Assembly (NCBI GenBank): GCA_902540995.1
Contig: CACBOY010000003.1
Location: forward strand, 6,703 to 70,702
Origin: an uncultured SAR86 cluster bacterium
GTDB lineage: Bacteria; Pseudomonadota; Gammaproteobacteria; Magnimaribacterales; AG-339-G14
DNA: 64,000 nucleotides
Direction of reading: 5' to 3'
Positions 2,349 to 64,000 of this stretch are shown here, piece after piece; the stretch's first letter is position 1; every line of letters begins with the position of its first letter. The notes below the pieces were generated by a model that had not been told where the DNA came from, ran no database searches, and worked only from the letters and a program-made list of their open reading frames with translations. The position numbers and the translations under genes are program-made.

Positions 2349-2816
2349 ATGAATTTTTTTATTGAGTACTTTAATAGCATTGTTGGAGCACTGGCAGCAA
2401 TTGGAGCTGTAGCTTCAATTTACTATTTAATACAAGAAATGAGAGAGCAAAACAGAGTAGCACGAGCAAATGCTAGGCAGAATGTCGCTGATAGCCATCA
2501 AGAAATTGCTTTAGAAGGCATGAAAAAAAGCATGGTTAAGATTAAGTTAAAACTGCGAAATGATGAGGAACTTACTCCTGAAGAAGACGCCAAATACATG
2601 TCATATTTCAGCATAATGTTACGGTCTAGAGAAAACCAACATTATCAATACACAATTGGCATGATCGATAAAGGAGAATGGGACAATTACAAAAGATCCT
2701 TCAAAACGCTTTTTAAATCAAAATATCATTTGAAACTATGGTCTTTCATGAAAAATACATTTAACGATAGCTTCGTTGAAGTTGTTGAGGAACTTATAGA
2801 AGATGACAATAATTGA
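2349..2816 (+). CDS. hypothetical membrane-anchored protein, first gene of the EAL/GGDEF operon
   Basis: 155 aa. It has one N-terminal TM helix (IVGALAAIGAVASIYYLI) followed by a charged soluble domain in which I recognise no family. Its 3' end overlaps the EAL gene by 14 nt. Confidence 0.5.
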   Translation: MNFFIEYFNSIVGALAAIGAVASIYYLIQEMREQNRVARANARQNVADSHQEIALEGMKKSMVKIKLKLRNDEELTPEEDAKYMSYFSIMLRSRENQHYQYTIGMIDKGEWDNYKRSFKTLFKSKYHLKLWSFMKNTFNDSFVEVVEELIEDDNN

Positions 2817-3891
2817 AGATCAACAGGCTAAATACCTAATTAAATCCCTGCAACATCACCCGAGCCCCTATTTGATTTTTTGTAAAGATGATGGGGTGGA
2901 ATGGATGAATCAATCTGCTCAATATGTTTTTGATACAACTGAAATAAGTGACATTGGTATCGCTCCAATAATATCTCATGGTACGTCAAAGAAAATAGAA
3001 GCAATTGGGTCTTCATTTCAATCCGATCTTGAACTCTCACTGAGAAAAATAAAATTTTTATTGAGATCTCGAGTTCACGAAATTCCCTTAGACAAAGAAG
3101 AATCTTTCTTTTTGATAGAGGTTTTGGCTCAGTCAGAGGCAGCTTTGGATGCTTTGAAAAATACCATTTCTTGTTTAGAAAATGATCGTATAGACATGGC
3201 TTACCAAAAACAATATGACCTTGCCACAGGAGACTTGGTTAGTGTGGAAACACTGCTACGATTAAGAGACGAAAAAGGAGATATTATCCCAAATGATAAA
3301 TTAATACCTCTGGTTGAAGGAGAAAGTTTATTTTCTCTTGTTGTGCTGGCTTCCATGCAGAAGTTAAAGGAGGTATTTGAATTTAAGAAAAAGAAAAAAT
3401 TAGACTTCACTGTTTATCTTAATGTTTCAGCTTATACAGCTATGCAAGAAAACTTTTGTAATCTCATTTTAGATTTTGTAAAAGAAAATAATCTTAATCC
3501 GGGAGACTTGGGGCTTGAAATCACAGAAACTGCAGAACTTGAAGATAGATCCAGAGCTGCAGAGTATTTTGAAAAACTTAAAAAACATGGAATACCTCTC
3601 GCGCTCGATGATTTTGGAGCAGGTTACTCTTCATTAAGTTATTTAAGAGACTTGCCGATTACTTTAGTAAAGCTTGATAAGGATTTTGCTAGAACTGTGT
3701 CTGAACAAGATACGCAAGAGCTCGTCAGATTTGTGGTAACAATTTGCAATAACATGGAGTTAGGTATGCTAGCTGAAGGGATTGAAACTGAGGAACAACA
3801 GAAAACATTTTTAGAACTTGGTTGCCACAAAGGCCAAGGATATTTTCATCACAGACCACAGTTTTTAAAGGATTTCAAGGAGGAATTTTAA
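2803..3891 (+). CDS. EAL-domain cyclic-di-GMP phosphodiesterase with an uncharacterised N-terminal domain of about 110 aa
   Basis: 362 aa. The EAL-domain catalytic set appears intact: ETLLR (EAL variant), LNVS, EITE, DDFGAGYSS, KLDK, EGIET and GQGY. Confidence 0.85.
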   Translation: MTIIEDQQAKYLIKSLQHHPSPYLIFCKDDGVEWMNQSAQYVFDTTEISDIGIAPIISHGTSKKIEAIGSSFQSDLELSLRKIKFLLRSRVHEIPLDKEESFFLIEVLAQSEAALDALKNTISCLENDRIDMAYQKQYDLATGDLVSVETLLRLRDEKGDIIPNDKLIPLVEGESLFSLVVLASMQKLKEVFEFKKKKKLDFTVYLNVSAYTAMQENFCNLILDFVKENNLNPGDLGLEITETAELEDRSRAAEYFEKLKKHGIPLALDDFGAGYSSLSYLRDLPITLVKLDKDFARTVSEQDTQELVRFVVTICNNMELGMLAEGIETEEQQKTFLELGCHKGQGYFHHRPQFLKDFKEEF

Positions 3892-5345
3892 TGGCTGTTT
3901 CGGAAAAACCTTCTAAAGGCGCGGAAAAAATATTACTCGCGCAAATTAAACAAGAGTTTGCAGCTCCTGCTGAAGCTATCGAACAATATATTGATTTAGT
4001 AGAAGAGTTTGGTGTAAAGAACAACCTCAATATCAGTTCAGAAATAAACCAAATCAAAGAAGCTGAAGACAAGCTCTTGAGTCAGTATGAGGATGCCTTT
4101 AGAGAAAATACGGCTGCAGACAAAAAAGCCAAAACATCACAAGAATACTCAGAGCTTAGACATAATCTTCGTACTCCTTTGAATGCAATAATTGGATATA
4201 GCGAAATTTTAATGGAAGACTTTGAAGATGATTTATCTGAGGAGTGTCTTAAAGATTTAAATACGATTTTAACTTTATCGAGAGAAACAGAGACGGCCAT
4301 AGAAAGATTTGTAGATTTTATTAAAGGTGACTTAAACGAAAAAGCCGCTGAAGATTCTGAACAAGGCCAAATTCAGAATGCTGAATCTCTATTTAGATCT
4401 TTAGGAGACATAGATTACAGTTTAGATATTGATGATTATCTCAAGGGGTCCGATGTGCTAATTGTTGATGATAACAAGACTAACTGTGAAGTTTTGGAAA
4501 GAAGATTAACTCAAAATGGGCTTTCTTGCAGAGTTGCTCTGGATGGGACAACCGCAATCAAAGAAGTGGATGCTAAAACTCCCGATCTTATTTTGCTAGA
4601 TGTAATGTTGCCGGACATAAACGGATTAGAGCTCCTTAAAAGATTTAGGAAGAACCATGATAGAGACGAGTTGCCAATCATTATGGTATCTGCATTCAAT
4701 GATGTTGATAGCACTGCTAAATGTATAAAGTTAGGGGCCTCAGACTATCTTCCTAAACCATTGAATGGAACAATTTTAATGGCGAAATCAATTGCGAGTT
4801 TAGAAGCAAAATATTTCAGAGCAAGAGAGCAAGAGTTATTAAAAGAATTAAATCTCAAAGCAACTACTTGCCCACTAACCGGAATCTATAACAGACAGGT
4901 TGTTTTTGACAAAATCGAGGAATGTTTCGAGAAACTGTCGCAAGAAAAAGGTTATGAATTTTCTTTACTTTCTATGGATATAGATTTTTTTAAATCTATA
5001 AATGACACTTATGGACACCCTGGAGGTGATGAGGTTTTGAAAGCTGTTGCTAATGGCTTAAGAGATGCATGCGGTAAAAACATTATTGGCAGAGTAGGTG
5101 GAGAGGAATTTATTGCAGTTTTAGAGAATAAAGAAGGAATGAGTTTGAACGATTACTGTGAGAATATAAGAAAGGCTGTAGTTGACTTATCAATTCCCTT
5201 CCAAGATGTTGAAATAAATATTACTATAAGTGGAGGAGTTATTAATTCATCTGAGGTTAAGGATCAAGAAGAACTTGTTAACCTTGCAGACGAAAGACTC
5301 TACAAAGCAAAAGAGGGGGGCAGAAATCAGTTTATTTATAGCTGA
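3891..5345 (+). CDS. DHp(H-box only)-REC-GGDEF protein (response-regulator diguanylate cyclase)
   Basis: I place the start at ATG 3891 (TAATG overlap with the EAL stop, AAGGAGG 7 nt upstream) rather than the track start 3822. The product is 484 aa. The H-box ELRHNLRTPLNAIIGYSEIL has its His at nt 4161-4163, and no HATPase N/G1/G2 boxes follow. The REC domain (DD..D237 at 4599-4601..KP) and GGEEF (5097-5111) are present, with no RxxD I-site just upstream. Confidence 0.85.
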   Translation: MAVSEKPSKGAEKILLAQIKQEFAAPAEAIEQYIDLVEEFGVKNNLNISSEINQIKEAEDKLLSQYEDAFRENTAADKKAKTSQEYSELRHNLRTPLNAIIGYSEILMEDFEDDLSEECLKDLNTILTLSRETETAIERFVDFIKGDLNEKAAEDSEQGQIQNAESLFRSLGDIDYSLDIDDYLKGSDVLIVDDNKTNCEVLERRLTQNGLSCRVALDGTTAIKEVDAKTPDLILLDVMLPDINGLELLKRFRKNHDRDELPIIMVSAFNDVDSTAKCIKLGASDYLPKPLNGTILMAKSIASLEAKYFRAREQELLKELNLKATTCPLTGIYNRQVVFDKIEECFEKLSQEKGYEFSLLSMDIDFFKSINDTYGHPGGDEVLKAVANGLRDACGKNIIGRVGGEEFIAVLENKEGMSLNDYCENIRKAVVDLSIPFQDVEINITISGGVINSSEVKDQEELVNLADERLYKAKEGGRNQFIYS

Positions 5346-5355
5346 GGAGAGAGTT

Positions 5356-5721
5356 ATGAAAAAGATTCTTTACGTAGAAGACAATGAAATGAATCGTGAC
5401 ATGTTAGGCAGAAGACTGACAAGAAGAGAATATGATGTCATCTTTGCTTTCGATGGTCAGGAAGGGCTTGATAAAATGAAATCAGAAAACCCAGACTTAG
5501 TTTTAATGGATATGGGTCTGCCTGTTCTGGACGGTTGGGAAGCCACTACACAGGCAAAAGCTGATCCCGAGATATCAAATATTCCAATCATTGCTTTAAC
5601 CGCTCATGCAATGGAACATGATAGACAAAAGGCTTTGGAGTGTGGGGCAGACGACTTTGACACAAAGCCAGTTGATTTTAAAAGGCTTTTAGAAAAAATT
5701 GAGTCGAATTTAGGTGCTTAG
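5356..5721 (+). CDS. single-domain response regulator (CheY-like receiver)
   Basis: The start is ATG 5356 with GAGGAGAG upstream; the track start 5230 lies inside the previous gene. The product is 121 aa. REC motifs are ILYVEDNEMN, LVLMD (Asp52 at 5509-5511), ALTAH and TKP. Confidence 0.85.
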   Translation: MKKILYVEDNEMNRDMLGRRLTRREYDVIFAFDGQEGLDKMKSENPDLVLMDMGLPVLDGWEATTQAKADPEISNIPIIALTAHAMEHDRQKALECGADDFDTKPVDFKRLLEKIESNLGA

Positions 5722-8711
5722 CTCTTAGCTCCTAATAATTTAGTAACCATTCCTGGAAGCTGATTAATAGATACTTCATCCTTTTTAACCAGCCCAGCAA
5801 CGTTCTTTCTTAAAAGTTCTTCTTGTACCTCTGATAAATCTTTTCCTGAATATACAAGAATATTAGGTTTATCTTCAAAATCCATTTCAACAAAGTTTTC
5901 TAAAAATTCGAAACCATCCATACGCGGCATTTCTAGATCTAAGACAATTAGCGCTGGGTTTTTATCCAAATTTTCAAGTCCTTCTTTTCCATCTCTAGCT
6001 AAGAAAGCTTCGTAACCAGCATCATTTAAGGCTCTTCCTAGAATATCTCTTGTATTCGAATCATCATCAACAACTAAGATTCTTTTGTTTGTTGAGCTAC
6101 CAAGTAAGTTAGTTACCATCTTAAGGAATTTATCCCTGTCAATTGGCTTGGTGAGATAGTCATCTGCTCCTAACGAAAATGCCAATGTTTCCTGCGACAT
6201 TTGGGAAACCATTATTACTGGAATGTCTTTTATAGATTCATCAGATTTGCATTCTTTTAAGATAGACCAACCATCTCTTCCCGGCATCAAAACATCTAAT
6301 AGAATGAGCTTTGGTTGTGATTCCCTAATCATATTCAGGCCTTGTTCACCATTAGTTGCTCCAATTAAAGTCATTCCAGCTTTTTTTACTGTCCTTTTTA
6401 TTAAGTCATGCATTGCTATATCATCATCAATTAGCACACATAAGTTTTCACCCTCTAAGGAAGAAATTTCTTCATTTTCGAGTTCTCCAGATTCATCACA
6501 GATTCTTGGAATAAAAATTGAAAATACAGATCCAACTCCTTTTTCACTGGATACCGTTACACCACCACCCATTAATTCAGCAAATCTTTTACTAATAGGC
6601 AGGCCTAGGCCTGTTCCGCCATGAGTTGCCGAGGTAGATCTTTCGGCTTGCTCATATTCTTCGAAGACTTTTGCTACTCCTTCTTCGCTCATACCTTCCC
6701 CATCATCAGTTACCTTGAATTCAATCATCTCAACTTCATCCTTCATGAAAGAATTAACATCTAAGGTTACTAAGCCGTTATTTGTAAATTTGAAGGCATT
6801 ACTTAAGAAATTTGTAACACACTGTCTAAGCTTCGTTTCATCTTGGGACATTGATCCTATAGCTTCTTGAATATTTATCTTGAAGCCATTGTCGTTTTTC
6901 GCCGCCAAAGGTGCGTTAATATCTCTAAGAGTTTCAACCACTTTTTCAATTTCGAAGCTGGTGATGAAAAGCTCCATTTTTCCAGACTCTATTTTTGAAA
7001 GGTCCAAAATATTATTAATCAGAGACAATAGATGTGTTCCAGAAGTAGTTATCTTCTTAAGATCAGGCATTAAATCTTCATAACCTAAATCTTCGCACTC
7101 TTCATATAGCATTTCTCCGTATCCTAAAATTGCATTCAATGGCGTTCTGAGTTCGTGACTCATATTGGCAAAAAATTTACTTCTCTGTTCATTTGCCTCA
7201 AGCGCTTCATCTCGAGACTCCTCCATCTCTTTGGTCCTTGTGTCTATAAGAACTTGTACTTCATCTGCCATTCTTGTGAATGCAACTGTCATTAATTCAA
7301 CTGAAGCTTCTTCTCCTTTATCCTGGGAGCTTTCTTGAGCAAGATTTTGCATCTTATTAATATCATTAAGAATTAAGGTTCTTGAATCTCCTTCAAGCTC
7401 ATCGGCAAGAATACTCATTTTTTCTATGATCGCAGTATCCCTTTCTTTTCTTCTGCGTGCCTGTTCAGTTCTGATATTTTCCATCTCATTAAGATGGCCT
7501 CTATAAATTTCTAGAGCCTTTGCAAGCTCACCAACCTCATCATTTTCAGATCTCAAAAGACCTCTTCTCTGTGGCATGGTTTTAGATAAGTCCCCACTGG
7601 TGAGAGCCTGAAGAACTTCAATTGCTTTATTTACTGATCCAAAAACATTAGCAAGAATTCCTGAAGTTAAAGCAATCACCAGAAAAATTACAATTGTAAT
7701 TATTATGTAGATTGAATTTAGGATAGCATTTTCTTGAGCGATACTTTCGCTTTCATCTCTAAAAATAAATAATTGTGCTTTATCTGATGAAAGGTATGAA
7801 CTCAATGGAAGAAGTGTGATGAGGGATCCTAAATCTGAATCTCTTGTAGAAGTTCTATTGCCAAACTCTTCTAAGTTTGAATTTGCCTTATCAACATGAC
7901 CTTTAATGTTGGTAATTCCAAAATTAGAAGTTTCGTCTAACTCTAAGCCTGACTCATATCTCGCATAATCGTCGCCTAATGAAATGATTCCTTCTTCTGT
8001 TTGTACTGCAGTAACAAGTTCAAATTCATCACCAAAGGTCTCCATAGACTTTCTTACATCTATTCCCATGACAATAATTGCTTCAGCATTTCTACTAAAA
8101 GCCTTTATCGGGAAAGCCATCATTTGGTTTAAGGTAGAAATTTTTTCTCCAGATGAGTCTACGATCTTTTGTAAAAATCTTCTTGGCCTCTTGCCTGCAT
8201 CAATAAGAAATTCGTCAAGATTATTATCGTATTCATTTTTAGCTTGAGGACTACATGCATCGATTCCAGATAAGTCCAGTGCGCTAGAACAATAAAACCT
8301 CTGCCCATTTGGATAATAAGCTTTAATAAAACTTAAATTCCCTTCATCCAAATCAAATTCAAACATTAGATCCAAGAGATATCCTGCTTCCCCAATGTTT
8401 TTATCCGTGATGAATTGGATTAACGGATTGGCATAATCGTCATCAGGTGAGGAAAGTTCCTCTTCAGGATATATAGGATTTTCGGGGTCCCAAAAATTTC
8501 CTCTTTCTCCAGTTACTGGAAGCCAGGCAGAAATAGCATCAATTGAAGTTTCGAGGGTCTGAAACCATGCAGCCTCATACGTTGAAACTAGAGACTCATT
8601 GGCAAAACTTTTTTGCGTAGTATCCCTATAGTTGAACAAAAAAAATAAGGAAAGGGCTAGCAGTAAGTTTCCTGCTAGGCCAATCCCAATTAATACTGTT
8701 CTGATACGCAT
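5718..8711 (-). CDS. hybrid sensor histidine kinase (periplasmic sensor-HAMP-coiled coil-HisKA-HATPase-REC-REC)
   Basis: 997 aa. TM1 spans aa 5-27, the periplasmic region aa 28-332 (nt 7716-8630) and TM2 aa 333-356. The H-box MSHELRTPLNAILGY has His519 at 7155-7157. The N box is NAFKFT and the G boxes are DDGEGM and GGTGLGL. Two receivers carry Asp806 (6294-6296) and Asp925 (5937-5939). No Hpt domain is present. Confidence 0.9.
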   Translation of the reverse strand: MRIRTVLIGIGLAGNLLLALSLFFLFNYRDTTQKSFANESLVSTYEAAWFQTLETSIDAISAWLPVTGERGNFWDPENPIYPEEELSSPDDDYANPLIQFITDKNIGEAGYLLDLMFEFDLDEGNLSFIKAYYPNGQRFYCSSALDLSGIDACSPQAKNEYDNNLDEFLIDAGKRPRRFLQKIVDSSGEKISTLNQMMAFPIKAFSRNAEAIIVMGIDVRKSMETFGDEFELVTAVQTEEGIISLGDDYARYESGLELDETSNFGITNIKGHVDKANSNLEEFGNRTSTRDSDLGSLITLLPLSSYLSSDKAQLFIFRDESESIAQENAILNSIYIIITIVIFLVIALTSGILANVFGSVNKAIEVLQALTSGDLSKTMPQRRGLLRSENDEVGELAKALEIYRGHLNEMENIRTEQARRRKERDTAIIEKMSILADELEGDSRTLILNDINKMQNLAQESSQDKGEEASVELMTVAFTRMADEVQVLIDTRTKEMEESRDEALEANEQRSKFFANMSHELRTPLNAILGYGEMLYEECEDLGYEDLMPDLKKITTSGTHLLSLINNILDLSKIESGKMELFITSFEIEKVVETLRDINAPLAAKNDNGFKINIQEAIGSMSQDETKLRQCVTNFLSNAFKFTNNGLVTLDVNSFMKDEVEMIEFKVTDDGEGMSEEGVAKVFEEYEQAERSTSATHGGTGLGLPISKRFAELMGGGVTVSSEKGVGSVFSIFIPRICDESGELENEEISSLEGENLCVLIDDDIAMHDLIKRTVKKAGMTLIGATNGEQGLNMIRESQPKLILLDVLMPGRDGWSILKECKSDESIKDIPVIMVSQMSQETLAFSLGADDYLTKPIDRDKFLKMVTNLLGSSTNKRILVVDDDSNTRDILGRALNDAGYEAFLARDGKEGLENLDKNPALIVLDLEMPRMDGFEFLENFVEMDFEDKPNILVYSGKDLSEVQEELLRKNVAGLVKKDEVSINQLPGMVTKLLGAKS

Positions 8712-8733
8712 TTACGCGCAAAAATTTAAGATC

Positions 8734-9117
8734 TTATTGAACTCTGAAAGATAATTTAACTTGCACATCATTTACTTGGACAGGCACACCTTCATATATA
8801 GGCGGCTGATAAATCCACTTTCTGATAGATTTCATTGCTGCTCTATCGAAAAGTCCTGCAGGTTCTCCTTCTAAAACAAAAGGGTCTATGACATCACCGT
8901 CAGCGCTAACATCGAATTCAACGATTACGTAACCTTCTTTCGCAAGTCTCAAAGCTTTTCTTGGATAGCTTGCAGGTGCTTGATATTGTCTTTCAACATC
9001 CATTTCGATGTTTTTTCCGTCGACAGTAATAAAGCCCTTATCAGCATGTATTAAGGCACTAAGCCCTAAAAAAAGAATAGATAGAGACAATAATTTAATT
9101 CCTTTTTTAAATATCAT
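8734..9117 (-). CDS. secreted stand-alone TonB C-terminal-domain protein
   Basis: The preferred start is ATG 9117, with AGGAG 8 nt upstream. Translation from there gives the signal peptide MIFKKGIKLLSLSILFLGLSALIHA. The rest aligns with the C-terminal domain of the TonB encoded at 33526-34272 (YPRKALRLAKEGYV..DRAA..YQP). It has no proline-rich spacer and no N-terminal energy-coupling helix. Confidence 0.7.
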   Translation of the reverse strand: MIFKKGIKLLSLSILFLGLSALIHADKGFITVDGKNIEMDVERQYQAPASYPRKALRLAKEGYVIVEFDVSADGDVIDPFVLEGEPAGLFDRAAMKSIRKWIYQPPIYEGVPVQVNDVQVKLSFRVQ

Positions 9118-9178
9118 TTTTAAATCTCCTAAGATTTGAAGTATTATAAACAAAAAACTCCATAAATCATCTCACTTA

Positions 9179-9577
9179 ATGCCTGAAAACATAGAATCAT
9201 TGCTCTTAAACCAAAGATATTGGGACATATTTGCTGTTGCCAGAAACTCTTCAATTGATGAAGCATGCAGAATAATGGACAAAAATAGAATTGGAGCTCT
9301 ATTGGTTTATTGTTCTGACACAAATGACCCACAAGATCTTGAAGGTATCGTTACAGAAAGAGATGTAATCGAACTTATTTCCAGAAAAGGTAAAGAAGCT
9401 TTAAATAACGAGGTCAAGGAAATAATGTCTAAAAATATCATTAGTGTCACACCGCAATGTACAAAGCTAGAGGCTCTTGACCTAATGATGGAAAATCAGA
9501 TTCGCCACCTTGCGGTTATGGATGATGAAAAACTCGTTGGAGTTCTTTCCATGCGCGATCTAATCAAGCAACTTTAA
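9179..9577 (+). CDS. CBS-domain pair protein
   Basis: 132 aa with two CBS repeats (IGALLV...GIVTERDV and IRHLAVMDDEKLVGVLSMRDL). Confidence 0.8.
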   Translation: MPENIESLLLNQRYWDIFAVARNSSIDEACRIMDKNRIGALLVYCSDTNDPQDLEGIVTERDVIELISRKGKEALNNEVKEIMSKNIISVTPQCTKLEALDLMMENQIRHLAVMDDEKLVGVLSMRDLIKQL

Positions 9578-21314: not shown

Positions 21315-22166
21315 ATGGGTAAAGAACTACAACCTATGGATATTTCTTCTCCAGGACAAAACCTGGAGTCCTATCTTAATTCTATTCAAAATATCTCTAT
21401 TTTAACTCCCGAAGAGGAGAAAAAACTTGCCGAAGAGCTTTACTATAATAATGACTTAGAAGCGGCTAGAAAGCTTGTAATGGCACATTTGAGGTTTGTC
21501 GCTCATGTGGCCAGAGGCTATTCCGGATATGGCCTTCCTCAAGCAGATCTTATTCAAGAAGGAAACGTTGGCCTTATGAAAGCTGTAAGGAAATTCAATC
21601 CAGAAGTTGGCGTCAGGCTCATATCCTTTGCGATTCATTGGATAAAATCTGAAATTCATGAATACATTTTAAAAAATTGGAAAATCGTCAAAGTAGCAAC
21701 TACCAAAGCTCAAAGAAAGCTTTTCTTTAATCTTAGAAGTAAAAGAAAAGAGTTAAATTGGCTCTCTTCTGATGAAGTAAAAATGATTTCCTCCGAATTA
21801 GGTGTAGACGAAAAATCTGTAAAAGAAATGGAATCCAGAATGAATTCTTCAGATGTTTCTTTTGACCCACCTGCAGAAGCCAATGACGATCAGGCATCTT
21901 ACAGCCCCGCTAATTACATTTCTGATTCAAGCATGGATCCAGCAGAGCTCATTGAAAAAAATGATTTAGAAAAACACAACAATAGCGAACTTCTTTCTGC
22001 TATTTCTGAATTAGATCAAAGAAGCAAAGAAATTTTAATGGATCGTTGGCTTAGTGACATGAAACCCACTCTCCACGAACTATCTGATAAATATGGAGTT
22101 AGCGCAGAAAGAATAAGGCAAATTGAAAAATCTGCCATGGACGTGATAAAGGAAAAATTGAGCTAA
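21315..22166 (+). CDS. rpoH: RNA polymerase sigma-32 (heat-shock sigma factor RpoH)
   Basis: 283 aa, collinear with E. coli RpoH. It includes the RpoH box QRKLFFNLR, plus LRFV.H.AR.Y.GYGLPQADLIQEGN.GLMKAVR.F and GVSAERIRQIE. Confidence 0.9.
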   Translation: MGKELQPMDISSPGQNLESYLNSIQNISILTPEEEKKLAEELYYNNDLEAARKLVMAHLRFVAHVARGYSGYGLPQADLIQEGNVGLMKAVRKFNPEVGVRLISFAIHWIKSEIHEYILKNWKIVKVATTKAQRKLFFNLRSKRKELNWLSSDEVKMISSELGVDEKSVKEMESRMNSSDVSFDPPAEANDDQASYSPANYISDSSMDPAELIEKNDLEKHNNSELLSAISELDQRSKEILMDRWLSDMKPTLHELSDKYGVSAERIRQIEKSAMDVIKEKLS

Positions 22167-30352: not shown

Positions 30353-30410
30353 AACCATAAAGTTTCTTTCTTATGGTCAAAACAGTGCTAGTTTTAGACC
30401 ATTTTTTTTG
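30353..30410 (+). promoter_or_regulatory. leader element of the TonB2-type operon: terminator-like hairpin plus T8, overlapped by an alternative upstream hairpin
   Basis: Hairpin B pairs 30373-30383 (ATGGTCAAAAC) with 30391-30402 (GTTTTAGACCAT), giving 11 bp with one bulge, and is followed by T8 at 30402-30409. Hairpin A pairs 30354-30360 (ACCATAA) with 30371-30377 (TTATGGT). The two share nt 30373-30377, so they are mutually exclusive. Confidence 0.4.
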
Positions 30411-30441
30411 CTTTAATCTTAAAATAATCAGGGGATTAATA

Positions 30442-31209
30442 ATGTTTATAACTAAGTTAAATAGGGCAATTTTAACGCTTTTTTTATTAACTGCATCATT
30501 ATATTTAAGCGCTCAACTTGAGCCAGTACTGGAAGTTAACAAAGAAAGAGCTCTTCTTGCCCAAGCTTCACAACAAAAAATAGATTCTTTTCAAGATAAA
30601 ACCGATAAAGACTCTGCTGAATACAAAAGTGTTAGCAAGCAAATCGAAGGTTTGAAAGTCTACAACGCTCAGAAAAGAAAACAGATAAAACGTCAAGTTG
30701 AAAGAATGAAAGAGATTGAAAAAACTATGAAAGACTCAACTGTTCTACAACGTCAAATTCCCCCGTTAGCAAGAAGAATGTTTGAAGGTTTAAAGCAATT
30801 CATAGCTCTTGATATCCCCTTCAGAGCTGGAGAAAGAACGGAAAGATTATCTTTTATTCAAGCAGCTTTAGATAACCCAGTTGTATCTCCTGCTGAAAAA
30901 CTCAGACAGGTTTTGGATGGTTATTCTGTGGAGTCTGAATATGGACGAAAAATAGACACTTATAAAGATACAATTTTGATTGACGACCAAGAAAGAGATG
31001 TAAATATCCTTAGGATTGGTAGATTGGTTCTTGCTTATCAAACCTCTGATCTTTCTGAGACTGGTATCTACAACAAAGAAACTCAGTCTTGGGAATCTTT
31101 ACCTGGCAGATACAGAAACTCAATCAGAGACGGTATAGCAATGGCTAAAAAAGTAAAAACCGTTGATATTCTGGAGTTACCTATTCCAGCTGCGGAGGTG
31201 GCCCAATGA
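30442..31209 (+). CDS. DUF3450-like periplasmic coiled-coil protein, first gene of the TonB2-type cluster (TtpB-like)
   Basis: I place the start at ATG 30442 (AGGGGA upstream). This gives the signal peptide MFITKLNRAILTLFLLTASLYLSAQ, whereas the track start 30373 would bury it. The gene overlaps the next one by 4 nt. Confidence 0.6.
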   Translation: MFITKLNRAILTLFLLTASLYLSAQLEPVLEVNKERALLAQASQQKIDSFQDKTDKDSAEYKSVSKQIEGLKVYNAQKRKQIKRQVERMKEIEKTMKDSTVLQRQIPPLARRMFEGLKQFIALDIPFRAGERTERLSFIQAALDNPVVSPAEKLRQVLDGYSVESEYGRKIDTYKDTILIDDQERDVNILRIGRLVLAYQTSDLSETGIYNKETQSWESLPGRYRNSIRDGIAMAKKVKTVDILELPIPAAEVAQ

Positions 31210-32579
31210 AATCAAAGTTACTAATAATTATTTTTGCCTTATTTCTTCCCTTTTCATATGCACAGGAAGAGAAGCCTGATACTGCACTGTCTTTGGAACA
31301 GCTTTTAGAACTTGTTCAACAGGGTAAATTTGCAGAATCTGAAGAAGCAACTGAAAGAGAGCAGAAATTTGCTAGGGAAAGAAGTCGCCAAGCAACATTA
31401 TTGGCAAATGCAAAAGCAGAAAGGTCAAGGCTTGAAGCAATTGCTACAGAACTAGAATCAAGATTTGAAGCTAATGATGCAAAACTTGTTGTTTTAGAGG
31501 AACAGTTAAAAACTAGACTGGGATCTTTGTATGAAACTTTTGGTCATCTGCAAGGAGTAGCTTCAGATACACAACAACAATTTGAGTCAGCAGTAACTTC
31601 TGGACAATTTGGCCAGGATAGGGAAATTTTCCTGAAGGACCTAGCAAAAAGAATGGGCGAAGGTATTAGTTTGGCTTCGATAGAAGAACTAGAAAGACTT
31701 TGGTATGAATTATCAAGAGAGTTAGTTGCTTCAGGAAATGTTCAAAAATTCCAAGCTACGGTAGTAGATAACGAAGGTCAAACATCTCAACAAAACGTAG
31801 TGAGAGTTGGAAATTTCAATGCTGTAACTGAAGGGCAATATTTAACTTACCTTCCTGCCAGAGGAGCTTATGAAACTCTGCCAAGACAACCTGGTAGATA
31901 TCTTGGAGGAACCTATGACGTACATGATACTTCAACAGGATTTGTTGAGTTTGCAGTCGATCCTACAGGACCTCAGGGAGGAGCTTTACTTACAAACCTA
32001 ATATCTCTTCCAAGTTTTTTTGAGCAGATTCAGTATGGAAGAATCACAGGTTATACCATCATCCTTCTCTTTTTATTAGCTACAGGAATTTTTGGTTGGA
32101 GAACTTATATCTTGTTTAATCTTGACAAAAATGTGAAGAAAGAAGCTTCAGGCTCCAGACAAGGGAATAATCCTCTATCTAGAATTTTCGATGTTGCTGA
32201 ACAAAATAAAGGATCAGATGTTGAAACATTAGAATTAAAATTAGCGGAACAAATATTAGTGGAGAGAGCATCTATAGATACTGGTATTTGGTTAGTTAGA
32301 TTAATTTCAGTCGTAGCCCCTTTGTTAGGATTGTTTGGAACAATAACTGGGATGATAAATACTTTCCAAGCTATCACCTTATTTGGTACTGGAGATCCAA
32401 AAACAATGGCAAATGGTATTTCAGAAGCTCTTGTAACAACCATGCTCGGCTTGATGACTGCTATTCCAGCAACTTTTATGGCTGCTATCATGGCAAATTA
32501 TGCTAAGAACATTCTTACTGTTCTTGAAGAACAAAGCACAGGAATGGTGGCTGCAGCATCTGAAGAAAACAAAGCTTAA
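31206..32579 (+). CDS. large MotA/TolQ/ExbB-family proton channel protein (TtpC-like)
   Basis: 457 aa. It has a signal peptide, a long periplasmic coiled-coil region and a C-terminal 3-TM MotA/ExbB module (APLLGLFGTITGMI..F, ISEALVTTMLGL). Confidence 0.8.
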   Translation: MKSKLLIIIFALFLPFSYAQEEKPDTALSLEQLLELVQQGKFAESEEATEREQKFARERSRQATLLANAKAERSRLEAIATELESRFEANDAKLVVLEEQLKTRLGSLYETFGHLQGVASDTQQQFESAVTSGQFGQDREIFLKDLAKRMGEGISLASIEELERLWYELSRELVASGNVQKFQATVVDNEGQTSQQNVVRVGNFNAVTEGQYLTYLPARGAYETLPRQPGRYLGGTYDVHDTSTGFVEFAVDPTGPQGGALLTNLISLPSFFEQIQYGRITGYTIILLFLLATGIFGWRTYILFNLDKNVKKEASGSRQGNNPLSRIFDVAEQNKGSDVETLELKLAEQILVERASIDTGIWLVRLISVVAPLLGLFGTITGMINTFQAITLFGTGDPKTMANGISEALVTTMLGLMTAIPATFMAAIMANYAKNILTVLEEQSTGMVAAASEENKA

Positions 32580-32584
32580 TAATC

Positions 32585-33109
32585 ATGGCTTTCCTATTTG
32601 GATTACAAGATACTCTCCTGGATTTTTTTGAAAAGGGAGGTGGAGTTGTTGTCTTCATAGGATTTTTAATTATCTTGATGTGGAGCTTTATTTTGGAGCG
32701 TTTTTGGTATTTCAAATACATACATGGAGATGTAGAAAAAGATATACAGAACGCTTGGAAGGAAACTCCAGATCGCAAATCTTGGTCAGGTCATCAGATA
32801 AGGTCCATGTTGATTTCAAAAGCAAATGTAAAAATACAAAGTAACTTAGAGTATATTAGAGTGGCCATAGTATTAGCTCCATTACTGGGTTTGTTAGGAA
32901 CTATTTTGGGCATGATAGAAGTTTTTCACATCTTGGCTGTAACGGGTGGAGGAGACGCAAAGGCAATGGCTGGTGGTGTGGCTAAATCTACAATCCCAGC
33001 AATGGCTGGTTTGATGGCTGCAATACCTGCAACTTTTGCTTCAAGAATATTGGAACAAAAAGCAAAAAAACAATCGGATTTATTACAAGAACATTTAACT
33101 TTTGAGTAA
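32585..33109 (+). CDS. exbB: ExbB/TolQ-family proton channel protein
   Basis: 174 aa with 3 TM helices and the motifs APLLGLLGTILGMIEVF and KST.PAMAGL. Confidence 0.8.
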   Translation: MAFLFGLQDTLLDFFEKGGGVVVFIGFLIILMWSFILERFWYFKYIHGDVEKDIQNAWKETPDRKSWSGHQIRSMLISKANVKIQSNLEYIRVAIVLAPLLGLLGTILGMIEVFHILAVTGGGDAKAMAGGVAKSTIPAMAGLMAAIPATFASRILEQKAKKQSDLLQEHLTFE

Positions 33110-33115
33110 AAAAAA

Positions 33116-33526
33116 ATGAGAAGATCACTAATTAGTCAAGCAGTAGAAGAAAAGGACGAACCTAATATTACTCCCATGTTGGATGTTGTGTTTATTCTTT
33201 TGATTTTCTTTATTGTTACTGCAAACTTTATCAAAGAACCTGGTTTAGAAATCAACAGGCCTGACTCAGAAACAGCTGAAGTAACTGAAAATGCAGCGAT
33301 CCTCATCGCAATTGGTTCTGCGGGTGAAATTTATATGGATGGCAGAAGAATTGATGTAAGGCAGGTAAAAGCAAATGTCATTAGAATGATTGCAGAAAAT
33401 CCTCAGGGGACGGTTGTCATTCAGGCTGACGAAAAATCGACGGCTGATACAATTATTGACGTTATGGATGAAGTAAGAGAAGCCGGAGTGATAGACATAT
33501 CTATTGCCTCTGAACCTAATTTTTAA
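33116..33526 (+). CDS. exbD: ExbD/TolR-family biopolymer transport protein
   Basis: 136 aa. The N-terminal NITPMLDVVFILLIFF helix carries the conserved Asp, followed by a periplasmic domain. Confidence 0.85.
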   Translation: MRRSLISQAVEEKDEPNITPMLDVVFILLIFFIVTANFIKEPGLEINRPDSETAEVTENAAILIAIGSAGEIYMDGRRIDVRQVKANVIRMIAENPQGTVVIQADEKSTADTIIDVMDEVREAGVIDISIASEPNF

Positions 33527-34272
33527 TGAAAAGTTATTTTAGACAACTATTTTCAAACCTTTTAAACAAAGCTTTCACATTGCAGTTAAAGGATGAAAAT
33601 TCCTTTTCTTTAAAAAAAATTATGGTTGACGACAGTCCTTATCAAAAATATGGATTAGCTGCTGCGGGCGGGACTGTAGTTTCTTTTGCTTCAATTTTAC
33701 TGATGGCCTTGTTAATTGCCACTGGAGAAGTTTCTTTAGACGATTCAAATCTTAGAAAAATTGTAGACGTTGTAATGCCAGTGAGAGACCCCGAATTAAT
33801 TGATTCTGTTGAAAGACCAGAAGAAGCTGAGCCTGAACCAGACCAATTACCTCCGGAAGTCGATATTGAAAACATTGAAGAACTTCTTGATCAGTCAGTT
33901 AATCCCAATTTGAATTTCAAAAGGAGAAGATCTGGAGTTTTTATGGATGGTTCATATGTTCCAATCTTTCAAGTGCCACCACAATATCCAAGAAGAGCTG
34001 CTGAAAGGGGTATCGAAGGTTGTGTTGTACTCAAATATGTTGTCACTGAAGTGGGGTCTGTAAGAGATCCAGAAGTTATCCAGTCTATTCCCCAAGGAAT
34101 TTTTGATAGAGCAGCAGTAAGAGCTGCGTTAAGATATAAATATAAACCTCTCATAAGAGATGGAAATGCTGTAGAAGTTGAAGGCGTAACTCAAAGGATA
34201 ACTTTTGTTCTTGAGGGAGAAGGTAAGGGTCCTGGTTATGTTCCTGAAAACTGTAGAGGCATACAAGGTTAA
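33526..34272 (+). CDS. tonB: TonB energy transducer
   Basis: 248 aa. It has a TM anchor, a short acidic/proline spacer (EEAEPEPDQLPPE) and a TonB C-terminal domain (YPRRAAERGIEGCVV...YKP). The TAATG junction with exbD suggests translational coupling. Confidence 0.8.
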   Translation: MKSYFRQLFSNLLNKAFTLQLKDENSFSLKKIMVDDSPYQKYGLAAAGGTVVSFASILLMALLIATGEVSLDDSNLRKIVDVVMPVRDPELIDSVERPEEAEPEPDQLPPEVDIENIEELLDQSVNPNLNFKRRRSGVFMDGSYVPIFQVPPQYPRRAAERGIEGCVVLKYVVTEVGSVRDPEVIQSIPQGIFDRAAVRAALRYKYKPLIRDGNAVEVEGVTQRITFVLEGEGKGPGYVPENCRGIQG

Positions 34273-34275
34273 AAT

Positions 34276-35664
34276 ATGATTAGGTTAATTTTTTTACTTT
34301 TTTTATTTTCAAATTTTTCTTTTTTGCAAAATAAAGATAATCCAGAACAAACAAAATTTGACTTTCCAGGTTACACCTTAAAAGGTTGTTTGGGCTCTGA
34401 TTTGTCGAAACCAAAAAGACAAGTAGCTAAATTGCCTAGTAAACAGGCTCAAAGATACTTGAAAGAACTTTTTCCTTTTTTACAAGGAGAGGATGAAGAC
34501 TTAGTAAAGGCTAAAAATGTGTTAACCAAAATGCAAGCTGATTCCAGTTTGACAGATCCTGATAAGGCTCAAATGTACTATTATTTTGCATACATAGATT
34601 CGATAAATGATGACATTAAATCTGCCAAAAAGAATTATAAGAAATTTCTTTCTATAGATGATGCTGATCCAAGATTAAAATCCAACGTTATATCTATGTT
34701 AGGGCAGCTTTCTTACGCAGAAGGAAGCTATAAAACTGCTATAGATTACATGGAACAATGGATTGCAATGGAAACCAATCCTAGCTCTTTAGGGTTTGAC
34801 ATTATCGCTGCGTCTTATTGGCAACTAAAAGATAAAAAAAAGGCTCTTAAGTTTTCCGAACGTGCATTATGTGTTGCAAAAGCAAACAAATCTAAACCAA
34901 AAGAATCAACTTACAATTTATTAATTGCTCTCTATAACGAAAATCAAAGAATAAAAGATATGCTTCCTTTGTTCGAAGAGTTAGTCAGGTTTTATCCAAA
35001 GAAAAGGTATTGGACTCAGCTTTCTGGAGTTTATGGAGAACTTAAACAAGAAAAGAAACAACTTTCATCTTTGGAAGCAGCTCATGATCAGAGGCTTCTT
35101 GATAAAGAAACTGAGTACGTTTCTCTCTATCAATTATTGATGAGAGCTGAAGCACCATTGAAAGCTGCAAGGGTGATTCAATACGGGATCGAAAAAGAAT
35201 TTGTAAAAGAAAATGAAAAACATCTTAAATATCTTGCTCAAGGATGGCATATGGCTCAAGAGCTCGATAAAGCAGAACCTGTTTACGAAAAAGCAGCTAT
35301 TAAATCTGAAGAAGGTGAGTTGTATGTTTTTCTTGGCCAAATCTACTTAGCTACCGATAGATATAAAAAAGCCAAACAAGCTCTTCAACTAGGTCTTAAA
35401 AAAGGAAAACTAAAAGATCCTGTTACAGTAAACATTCTTTTAGGCCAAGTTGCCTATGAGCTCCAAGATTTTGAAGATGCTACTAAATTCTTTAGAACTG
35501 CTATTGATAGGCTATCTGATATCAAAATAAAAGATAAAGAAGCTCGAGAGAAAAAACAAGATAAGTTAAGAACCCAAGCTTTAAATTGGCTTACCTATAC
35601 TGAAAAAGAAAAGAAAAGAGTTGAGATGCTTCAACTTAGAATCAAAGACCTAGAAGAAAGTTAA
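34276..35664 (+). CDS. TPR-repeat protein closing the TonB2-type cluster (TtpD-like)
   Basis: 462 aa with a signal peptide and multiple TPR-like helical repeats. Its position immediately after tonB matches Vibrio-type TonB2 clusters. Confidence 0.6.
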   Translation: MIRLIFLLFLFSNFSFLQNKDNPEQTKFDFPGYTLKGCLGSDLSKPKRQVAKLPSKQAQRYLKELFPFLQGEDEDLVKAKNVLTKMQADSSLTDPDKAQMYYYFAYIDSINDDIKSAKKNYKKFLSIDDADPRLKSNVISMLGQLSYAEGSYKTAIDYMEQWIAMETNPSSLGFDIIAASYWQLKDKKKALKFSERALCVAKANKSKPKESTYNLLIALYNENQRIKDMLPLFEELVRFYPKKRYWTQLSGVYGELKQEKKQLSSLEAAHDQRLLDKETEYVSLYQLLMRAEAPLKAARVIQYGIEKEFVKENEKHLKYLAQGWHMAQELDKAEPVYEKAAIKSEEGELYVFLGQIYLATDRYKKAKQALQLGLKKGKLKDPVTVNILLGQVAYELQDFEDATKFFRTAIDRLSDIKIKDKEAREKKQDKLRTQALNWLTYTEKEKKRVEMLQLRIKDLEES

Positions 35665-49163: not shown

Positions 49164-49193
49164 TGCACAAATAATTTCTTTTTTTGATAGAAT
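49164..49193 (+). promoter_or_regulatory. candidate sigma-70 promoter for the TonB-dependent receptor gene
   Basis: TGCACA at 49164-49169 is followed by an 18-nt spacer and an extended -10 TGaTAGAAT at 49185-49193, about 45 nt upstream of ATG 49238. This is pattern match only. Confidence 0.25.
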
Positions 49194-49237
49194 CCAAACT
49201 TAAAATTCTTGTCACTATTATTAATTTCGGGGGAAAG

Positions 49238-63709: not shown

Positions 63710-64000
63710 AGATCTAGTTCAGTAATCTTTCGAGCTAAAGTATTTCTTCCCCAGCCCAATAACTTAGCTGCTTCACTTTTTTTACCTTTTGTTACTTTCA
63801 GTGCCGCTTTAATCATGGTTCCTTCAAATATCGGGGTAGCGCTATTGAGAATATGATCATCACCTTTAAGAAGTTTTTTTGATGCCCATGACTCAAGCAT
63901 ATCGCTCCAACTCATTTCAGGGCCTTTACGCTGTAAAGAAAGGTCTTTGGGAATATCACTTATCGAAATCTCTTGACCAGAGGATAATAAGGTTAGTGAC
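63706..64000 (-). CDS. ntrC: 3' part of an NtrC-type sigma-54-dependent response regulator gene (runs off the window)
   Basis: The frame is open from the window edge down to the stop at 63706. The C-terminal Fis-type HTH KSEAAKLLGWGRNTLARKITELDL closely matches the NtrC C-terminus. The track shows only the part downstream of an internal Met. Confidence 0.65.
   Translation of the reverse strand, partial: SLTLLSSGQEISISDIPKDLSLQRKGPEMSWSDMLESWASKKLLKGDDHILNSATPIFEGTMIKAALKVTKGKKSEAAKLLGWGRNTLARKITELDL

Follow-up and report, generated by a model that had tools for sequence, protein, structure and literature searches.

In Caulobacter crescentus, the kinases DivJ and PleC control a single receiver, DivK, and a receiver-GGDEF cyclase, PleD, that are encoded side by side. 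A comparable arrangement is found in a 64-kb stretch of DNA (hereafter, the window) from SAR86, a gammaproteobacterium, where six genes between positions 2349 and 9117 encode a putative membrane-anchored protein (p1), an EAL protein (p2), a protein associating a dimerization and histidine phosphotransfer (DHp) domain with a receiver (REC) and a GGDEF domain (p3), a single REC (p4), a hybrid kinase (p5), and a small protein with a TonB C-terminal domain (p6). PleD has a REC-REC-GGDEF organization with an RxxD I-site, whereas p3 is made of a Q-box hairpin, a DHp, a REC, and a GGDEF domain and is devoid of a canonical I-site. The kinases of Caulobacter are not of the hybrid type, in contrast to p5, which contains a periplasmic sensor and two receivers and has a TonB_C protein as partner. 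The SAR86 block, unlike the Caulobacter DivK/PleD system, includes an EAL enzyme and p1.

In the Spo0 (KinA-Spo0F-Spo0B-Spo0A), CckA-ChpT-CtrA/CpdR, and Pak-SdrG-PhyT-PhyR (PMC5898713) phosphorelays, the second His is carried by a kinase-inactive DHp four-helix-bundle protein and not by a histidine phosphotransfer (Hpt) domain. A single-domain receiver acts as the shuttle for Spo0 and Pak. For CckA, this function falls to the receiver of the kinase itself, and CpdR, which has a single domain, is a terminal component. The SAR86 DHp differs from these systems in being fused to the final regulator, without ATPase remnant and with a Q-box hairpin before it; furthermore, the output would be cyclic di-GMP (c-di-GMP) and not transcription, in a relay that is here deduced from the genes. 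The CyaC-type adenylate cyclase of cyanobacteria (REC-GAF-HisKA-HATPase-REC-cyclase) resembles p3 in that a HisKA domain directly precedes the cyclase-activating receiver in one polypeptide, and a class III cyclase is the output of many p3 relatives. However, CyaC has its own ATPase domain and autophosphorylates, whereas the p3 family has no ATPase domain and would need a separate kinase.

The p6/p5 pair, for its part, is reminiscent of LuxP/LuxQ and TorT/TorS, in which a small exported protein is likewise encoded just upstream of a hybrid kinase, the periplasmic domain of the kinase having a PAS/PDC-like fold there and possibly also in p5. In this pairing, read from gene order, the partner is a TonB C-terminal domain protein (or a beta-lactamase-family protein in a second lineage, see below) instead of a substrate-binding protein such as LuxP or TorT. 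An Hpt takes part in both systems, as the separate protein LuxU that receives phosphate from LuxQ and as a domain of TorS itself, whereas p5 has none. Finally, the "HisKA, no HATPase" proteins of a published census (PMC5847659) share with p3 a HisKA domain with a conserved His and no ATPase domain; these are isolated architectures, mainly archaeal, whereas p3 is a fused cassette with fixed partners and a conserved neighborhood.

From the sequence features described below, the module most likely turns an envelope or periplasmic signal into c-di-GMP. As for the route, we lean toward a His-Asp-His-Asp relay passing through His91 of p3. The locus would thereby be a multi-step phosphorelay with c-di-GMP output, built on a widely distributed three-protein design that is apparently undescribed.

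A gene block conserved in SAR86 and, for the most part, in a second marine lineage

The six open reading frames (ORFs) lie where the original prediction had placed them, with the same coordinates, overlaps, and domains, as judged from the ORF list, the sequence, and Pfam. On the forward strand, p1 (2349-2816, 155 residues), p2 (2803-3891, 362 residues), p3 (3891-5345, 484 residues counted from the ATG within TAATG), and p4 (5356-5721, 121 residues) follow each other with a 14-nucleotide overlap at the p1/p2 junction, a TAATG overlap at the p2/p3 junction, and a 10-nucleotide gap containing GGAGAG between p3 and p4. On the reverse strand, p6 (9117-8734, 127 residues) is separated from p5 (8711-5718, 997 residues) by 22 nucleotides; these junctions were read directly from the sequence. 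The stops of the two convergent groups are nested inside a TTAG, the TAG of p4 occupying 5719-5721 and the TAA of p5 being the complement of 5718-5720. Searches with the hidden Markov models (HMMs) of Pfam bore out the assignment of EAL, HisKA/Response_reg/GGDEF, lone Response_reg, hybrid kinase, and TonB_C, and none of the six proteins reaches any equivalog cut-off in NCBIfam.

Alignment of the periplasmic part of p5 with its relatives led to 56 species-representative genomes (46-100% identity), all of them SAR86 or clearly mis-binned contigs. In every sufficiently flanked locus of the 56 SAR86 species genomes, tblastn recovered the six genes collinear and in the same orientation, down to 46-60% identity, SAR86A and SAR86B being among the loci with the complete order. 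Spacing, measured over about 53 species, ranges from -26 to +16 nucleotides between p1 and p2, from -23 to +13 between p2 and p3, and from -4 to +23 between p3 and p4. The convergent p4 and p5 genes share a 4-nucleotide stop overlap in 32/53 species and have a spacing of 0-9 nucleotides in the rest, except for two outliers, and p6 and p5 are 9-53 nucleotides apart with one outlier. The flanks, on the other hand, change: at least 15 different genes are the immediate neighbor on the p1 side among SAR86 loci, and on the p6 side the gene context also varies past an adjoining CBS-pair gene. The recurrence of the six-gene order in every sufficiently flanked SAR86 genome is far beyond chance; the co-occurrence expected of a functional module is indeed found in related genomes.

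A counterpart of the module is encoded by marine contigs of 36% GC representing another lineage (L150-L152). There, the single REC is 73% identical to p4, the hybrid kinase 46% identical to p5 with a recognizably related sensor, and the DHp-REC-GGDEF protein 39% identical to p3; the EAL protein, of 245 residues, has its active-site residues and is transcribed divergently. The kinase gene is convergent to the diguanylate cyclase and REC genes with the same 4-nucleotide overlap. Upstream of the kinase, in the slot of the TonB_C gene, L150 encodes a signal-peptide beta-lactamase-family protein (6699-8497, reverse strand, 445 residues), and a p1 homolog (34% identity, E 5e-32) lies further upstream within the kinase operon. 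Thus, five of the six module genes, TonB_C excepted, recur in this lineage at 27-73% identity, and the cyclase, phosphodiesterase, REC, kinase, and p1 genes travel together in two lineages. The exchange of the periplasmic partner between SAR86 and this lineage fits a role of that partner as co-sensor. Given a conserved block, changing flanks, and this counterpart, the proposal that the six genes form one functional unit is upheld, and we regard it as close to certain.

Two loci with the SAR86 module at SAR86-like identity are labeled Dehalococcoidia (L046) and Rhodobiaceae (L047) and are probably mis-binned.

Proteins of the module

In Pfam, p3 matches HisKA (3.6e-08), Response_reg (1.7e-28), and GGDEF (6.2e-35) but not HATPase_c. 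Along the forward strand, it comprises a Q-box pseudo-DHp hairpin (3924-4130, Gln21 at 3951-3953), an ATPase-less DHp (4140-4340, His91 at 4161-4163), a REC (4455-4781, Asp237 at 4599-4601), and a GGDEF domain (4872-5330, GGEEF at 5097-5111), with a separation of only about 35 residues and no ATPase remnant between DHp and REC. Across 55 orthologs, the H-box LRHNLRTPLNAIIGY, with His91, is invariant, as are DD192-193, D237, Ser, and Lys of the receiver. In the GGEEF motif (residues 403-407), the four catalytic residues are invariant and F407 is present in at least 90%; D363, D365, N371, and D380 are also invariant. Since the guanine-binding N371 and D380 are kept, we read p3 as not being a Hypr-type variant. 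The possibility that the DHp-REC-GGDEF protein is catalytically dead, which would have undermined the original prediction, is thus not supported, and p3 is predicted to be an active-site-intact diguanylate cyclase at the end of the putative phosphorelay. At the canonical I-site, five residues before GGEEF, no RxxD is found, the sequence being CGKN-IIGRV-GGEEF.

The H-box of p3 is preceded by a degenerate copy in which Gln replaces His (QIKQ21EFAAPAEAIEQY), Q-box and H-box being in register (hhalign E 0.0013). In the H-box, the H+1 residue is Asn and the H+4 residue is Thr. In HisKA motifs, kinases need Asp or Glu at H+1 to autophosphorylate, so that the Asn of p3 fits a phosphorylation of His91 by transfer and not from ATP. 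Moreover, alignment and inspection showed hardly any difference in helix 1 between the H-box of p3 and that of p5, which makes it plausible that both DHp domains dock the same receivers. A classification of p3 as a free-standing DHp of the Spo0B/ChpT type with a degenerate ATPase-like domain was discarded because its DHp is fused to REC-GGDEF. An exhaustive search with residues 1-185 of p3 revealed a large family in which one to three ATPase-less H-box DHp units are followed by a REC and an output (Pfam and local classification). The output is most often a class III nucleotide cyclase and otherwise GGDEF or a complete kinase core, PP2C/SpoIIE, Ser/Thr protein kinase, and HAMP being further cases. 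The REC-proximal DHp keeps its His in 41/44 units of the relatives, and Gln occupies the His column in 14 of their 23 preceding DHp units.

The single receiver p4 is a lone Response_reg (4.1e-26, Asp52 at 5509-5511), complete in the ortholog alignment. Being 74-93% identical across SAR86, against 37-61% for the other five proteins, it is by sequence identity the most conserved component of the module. Its nearest solved structures are PleD REC1 and DivK (match to 1m5t, E 4.6e-20, below that to PleD REC1), and IMG labels receivers of this type "DivK" or "CheY-like". Nevertheless, p4 was rejected as a DivK ortholog, the similarity being only generic, the host gammaproteobacterial, and no NCBIfam cut-off being reached; indeed, neither p4-type receivers nor the DHp-REC cassette score above the cut-off of any NCBIfam model. 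The receiver retains the Thr and aromatic (Phe) switch residues typical of output receivers. It could therefore have a target of its own, so that c-di-GMP would not necessarily be the sole output. The FATGUY motif, a mark of shuttle receivers (PMC9981736), is absent from p4 and only partial (S-G) in REC2 of p5, and it does not discriminate here.

The description of p5 as a 997-residue hybrid kinase with a periplasmic sensor of about 300 residues and two receivers proved accurate. Pfam identifies HisKA, HATPase_c, and two Response_reg domains and, in agreement with the original prediction, no Hpt; nor does it find an Hpt domain in any of the six locus proteins. On the reverse strand, sequence inspection places two hydrophobic transmembrane segments at 8631-8699 and 7641-7715, between which lies the periplasmic domain (7716-8630, about 305 residues). 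These are followed by a HAMP-like region (7476-7640), the DHp (6981-7187, His519 at 7155-7157), the ATPase domain (6507-6842), REC1 (6108-6443, Asp806), and REC2 (5757-6074, Asp925). Among 51 orthologs, H519 (in HELRT), D806, D925, and the Ser/Thr and Lys residues of both receivers are invariant. REC2 is devoid of the aromatic switch residue and has K-D in place of K-P.

In sequence searches, relatives of the periplasmic part of p5 come only from marine metagenomes and SAR86 bins. This domain has no Pfam match and hence no HMM support for a Cache/PDC assignment. An AlphaFold2 (AF2) model of residues 1-440, built with 10 homologs, has a predicted local distance difference test (pLDDT) value of 54 overall for the sensor and of 70-86 for an alpha/beta core at residues 95-225. 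The best Foldseek matches of this low-confidence model are the PDC/PAS-like domains of CitA, KinD, LuxQ, and a Vibrio kinase (E 5e-4 to 3e-3), which is suggestive of a PDC/PAS-like fold. Two periplasmic cysteines 12 residues apart, C141 and C153 (8253-8291, reverse strand), are nearly invariant, and the L150 kinase carries a cysteine pair in a similar position; they may form a structural or a redox-sensitive disulfide.

Kinase "halves" of 354 and 650 residues were rejected as a natural split of p5, the contigs concerned being long-read or of low quality, with neighboring genes fragmented too. In two pilon-polished, apparently long-read loci (L001 and L028), frameshifts break the kinase, p3, p2, and NadB, and the databases thus hold artefact proteins of 354 residues ("sensor only") and about 650 residues ("kinase only").

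The opposing enzyme, p2, matches EAL (1.4e-51), with the domain at 3175-3858. In line with the original prediction of an EAL phosphodiesterase with an intact catalytic set, E149-x-L-x-R153, N207, E239/E242, D269-D270, K290, E324/E327, and Q344 are invariant in 53 orthologs, which points to a functional c-di-GMP phosphodiesterase. Its N-terminal region (about 2824-3162) looks PAS-like by motif only (HHPSPYxI...W.N.AA.YIF...LRxIxFFxRTRVHxIP), and neither HMM nor PDB profile searches support this call.

No Pfam, NCBIfam, or PDB profile match was obtained for p1, which is found in 52 SAR86 loci and gave 279 matches in a sequence search, all SAR86-like. It is predicted to consist of one N-terminal transmembrane helix and a cytoplasmic four-helix domain, N-out and C-in by the positive-inside rule. 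In an AF2 model from a shallow alignment (pLDDT 75; helices 2-70, 77-102, 108-121, 125-137, and 140-154), the transmembrane helix runs on into a long helix, and a fold search with this model returned no match (best E 0.5).

The sixth protein, p6, was correctly recognized as a TonB C-terminal domain protein encoded 22 nucleotides before the kinase (TonB_C, 5.2e-18). It has an N-terminal hydrophobic signal or anchor, without lipobox Cys, and would be exported or membrane-tethered. In the absence of a Pro-rich spacer, p6 is not expected to be an energy transducer. This role was also rejected because the 127 residues hold only TonB_C, and a complete TonB with ExbB/ExbD is already present at 31206-34272; p6 is 38% identical to the C-terminal domain of this full-length TonB (33526-34272). 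A mini-TonB, hinted at by SALIH (SxxxH), was likewise dismissed: the motif is not conserved in orthologs, the hydrophobic segment, its His included, varying among them. By its gene position, p6 probably assists p5 as a co-sensor in the periplasm. The forward strand of the window also carries a cluster of DUF3450, ExbB (457 residues), ExbB, ExbD, TonB, and TPR genes (30373-35664) and a TonB-dependent receptor of 976 residues (49184-52114).

The putative phosphorelay and its relatives

In the relay that we favor, p5 would sense through its SAR86-type periplasmic domain, probably together with p6, and would autophosphorylate on His519, as its intact motifs suggest. The phosphoryl group would pass via a receiver Asp, either Asp52 of p4, which would then act as Spo0F or SdrG does, or one of the two receiver residues of p5 itself (Asp806 or Asp925), to His91 of p3 and then to Asp237 of p3, whose phosphorylation would switch on the GGEEF diguanylate cyclase. 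The EAL phosphodiesterase p2 would remove c-di-GMP, so that its level would follow the relay, with p1 as a membrane-anchored accessory. As regards the elements of a phosphorelay, p5 is a hybrid kinase with a phospho-His and receiver Asp, p3 is a terminal REC-output regulator, and a DHp-type carrier of the second His is proposed from the sequence features of p3 (HisKA, invariant His91, no HATPase_c). Since p5 has no Hpt, the phosphoryl group would have to be relayed through a receiver Asp, and since the DHp of p3 is ATPase-less with an invariant His91, we infer that it supplies the missing His-phosphotransfer step. Spo0F/Spo0B and ChpT are precedents for a DHp-type second His. Another is the Pak-SdrG-PhyT-PhyR relay, in which a DHp protein resembling a kinase takes the phosphate from a single receiver and hands it to the final regulator (PMC5898713). 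Compared with the original prediction, the new elements are that a three-protein core of the module is widespread and that the ATPase-less DHp of p3 is a natural candidate for the missing Hpt function.

This core came to light in the neighborhoods of distant relatives. In four distant members of the p3 family with readable flanks, a single receiver of 121-125 residues is encoded directly upstream (4/4); the contig of a fifth was too short to show the neighbor. These receivers are 62-64% identical to the SAR86 p4, whereas the adjoining cassettes are only about 31-33% identical to p3. A metagenome scan seeded with these receivers yielded at least 600 matches, from which 80 loci with 34-73% GC were kept, and p4-type receivers are 62-90% identical across lineages among the matches listed. 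The next gene downstream on the same strand encodes an ATPase-less DHp(n)-REC-output protein in 30-33 of the 50 kept loci with at least 1.5 kb downstream, the upstream gene is a sensor-DHp-ATPase-REC-REC kinase in 21 of the 33 with at least 2.5 kb upstream, and the complete trio is present in 21 of the 32 that reach 8 kb or more. The sensors of the trio kinases are of the GAF, PAS, dCache+HAMP, or TorS type. Like p5, all 37 of these kinases stop 0-32 residues past REC2, which leaves no room for a C-terminal Hpt, and no Hpt was found in the nine of them that were checked directly in Pfam. Residues 490-997 of p5 align end to end with them at 38-44% identity. In unrelated high-GC bacteria, the trio genes lie next to each other, mostly as a single operon. 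Source names assign members to Beggiatoa, Thiotrichaceae, and Solirubrobacterales. Hence, the association of a kinase-REC-REC, a single REC, and a DHp-REC-output protein is a widespread gene neighborhood, not specific to SAR86, in which sensors and outputs are swappable. A different cognate partner for the kinase, envisaged at the outset as a refutation, is thus not what the neighborhoods indicate, since the same kinase type, single receiver, and DHp-REC protein are also neighbors in unrelated bacteria.

Two variants of the trio can be mentioned. One trio kinase (L069, 3065-5533) has a phosphonate-binding-type periplasmic domain and a receiver-like tail with, in our reading, Asn and not Asp at the acceptor position, so that the single REC would be the one free-standing receiver still intact there. 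In the high-GC loci L062 (1048-8440) and L063, the single REC and DHp-REC-cyclase genes are followed by those for the small and large subunits of a NiFe-hydrogenase, HycI, and a PAS hybrid kinase, an arrangement suggestive of a trio that senses hydrogen and acts on a nucleotide cyclase.

Several points weigh against the proposed relay. HisKA domains also act as receiver phosphatases, for which Thr at H+4 is needed, and p3 keeps this Thr, so that a phosphatase is possible from its sequence. The DHp of p3 could also serve simply for dimerization, on which GGDEF catalysis depends. Two His and four intact Asp being available, the path, deduced from sequences, is ambiguous; p4, given its Thr/Phe switch residues, may be an end point and not a shuttle. 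The co-sensor role of p6 is drawn from gene position alone, and the call on the sensor fold of p5 leans on a model with pLDDT 54. The Hpt-negative result covers the locus proteins and the related kinases, not the rest of the SAR86 genome, and the neighborhood counts were obtained with HMMs built locally and with a simple calling of ORFs.

Some of these points would be accommodated by a branched two-component system, a tentative alternative to which we give appreciable but clearly minor credit. His519 of p5 would phosphorylate Asp237 of p3 and Asp52 of p4 directly, the DHp of p3 would be a dimerization stalk and/or a phosphatase resetting p3 or p4, and the receivers of p5 would be sinks or autoinhibitors. 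Caulobacter offers a parallel, as its divK and pleD genes share an operon and answer the same kinases, and p4 resembles DivK and PleD REC1, its type being named DivK in IMG. The phosphatase Thr at H+4, the lack of an acidic residue at H+1, and the requirement of GGDEF enzymes for dimers are all compatible with this scheme, and for "HisKA, no HATPase" proteins Galperin et al. (PMC5847659) raised the idea of a phosphatase, leaving both this function and phosphotransfer open. However, plain dimerization leaves the invariant His and the H-box unexplained, all the more so as the His is kept in 41/44 units of distant relatives but lost from the neighboring Q-box unit. The branched scheme also fails to explain two intact kinase receivers without Hpt in 37/37 kinases, and does not account for the single REC staying beside the DHp-REC gene whatever the output.

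An improbable alternative is that the main output is phosphorylated p4 binding a cellular target, as CheY, DivK, or CpdR do, with the cyclase and phosphodiesterase as a side branch or feedback loop. It would agree with p4 being by far the most conserved protein across lineages, with its retained Thr and aromatic switch residues, and with a trio that holds p4 constant while outputs vary. Yet high conservation is equally expected of a shuttle docking two DHp domains, for example Spo0F, no conserved candidate target gene accompanies p4 among the neighborhoods examined, and the enzymatic outputs are under strict purifying selection. Lastly, that the two operons are mere neighbors through slow SAR86 rearrangement, the kinase having another partner and the cyclase/EAL operon another input, is very improbable. 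In its favor, they are convergent and hence separately transcribed, a putative NtrC-like regulator at the window edge points to other two-component genes in the genome, and the interaction of p5 with p3/p4 is deduced from sequence and gene context. Against it, the flanks on both sides change repeatedly around an intact block, the kinase type, single REC, and DHp-REC protein are adjacent in unrelated high-GC bacteria, and the same convergent pair exists in the second marine lineage.

Beyond the relay through His91, a broader and doubtful proposal, taken as a whole, is that a kinase-REC-REC, an ultra-conserved single receiver, and a (Q-box + H-box DHp)-REC-output protein constitute an unrecognized, phylum-spanning "plug-and-play" phosphorelay chassis. 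Its tandem DHp hairpins, one degenerate and one intact, would form a single-chain four-helix bundle with one His, that is, an Hpt function built into the final regulator, and the SAR86 version would couple envelope state or TonB-dependent uptake to c-di-GMP via a TonB C-terminal domain reader. If this were true, any sensor could be wired to cAMP/cGMP, c-di-GMP, PP2C, a Ser/Thr kinase, or a second kinase, and the tandem DHp bundle would fulfil the Hpt function through a structure of a new kind.

SAR86 bacteria, whose genome is small and streamlined, count among the most abundant surface-ocean heterotrophs. A strictly conserved c-di-GMP module, enzymatically intact as judged by its residues, implies a regulated lifestyle decision in planktonic SAR86 that is not known to have been looked for, and provides a defined handle for finding its signal and targets. 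Our literature search, of incomplete coverage, returned nothing on SAR86 with c-di-GMP, a diguanylate cyclase, or this kinase. It likewise returned no description of the HisKA-REC cassette or of the trio, a prior description being possible given that coverage. The trio bears on the census question of what "HisKA without HATPase" proteins do, as Hpt is probably replaced in it by the ATPase-less DHp that forms part of the final regulator, and this question becomes testable with a small set of soluble proteins. Recognition of the trio would also correct a routine mis-annotation, in which the cassette proteins are called histidine kinases and the single receiver is called DivK or CheY.

Surroundings of the module in the window

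The original prediction had described the six genes as the only signaling genes in the window besides rpoH and a truncated ntrC. Phmmer searches with the module's own domains indeed found none of the REC, HisKA, HATPase, GGDEF, or EAL domains outside the module within the window; other regulator classes were screened in part. Likewise, the terms "self-contained" and "regulator-poor" can be assessed inside the 64-kb window only, and the best 25 of the 94 Pfam families in the window census are all housekeeping. The rpoH candidate corresponds to a sigma-70-family gene at 21315-22166. The truncated ntrC corresponds, by eye, to the tail of an NtrC-like regulator with a Fis-type helix-turn-helix (63712-63999, reverse strand), cut by the window end.

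Upstream of p1, the AT-rich intergenic region at 2286-2348 is the presumed promoter region of the p1-p4 operon, and a consensus promoter scan of it gave nothing above background. That of the p6-p5 operon is presumably the divergent 61-nucleotide intergenic region at 9118-9178, where one weak promoter-like match (9119-9147, forward strand) faces the next gene and does not exceed background. In the promoter and terminator scan, promoter-like sites were fewer than in shuffles and terminator-like sites were at background.

The gene facing this region, divergent from p6, encodes a stand-alone CBS-pair protein of 132 residues (9179-9577, forward strand; Pfam CBS 4.9e-27, in two stretches). It directly adjoins p6 in 43/51 SAR86 loci, with a gap of 57-83 nucleotides in all measured loci but one, and is absent from SAR86A-type loci and from the L150 lineage; it is thus a frequent but not an obligatory neighbor. 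Stand-alone CBS proteins of Firmicutes bind c-di-AMP, and by analogy the CBS-pair protein is a conceivable nucleotide receiver.

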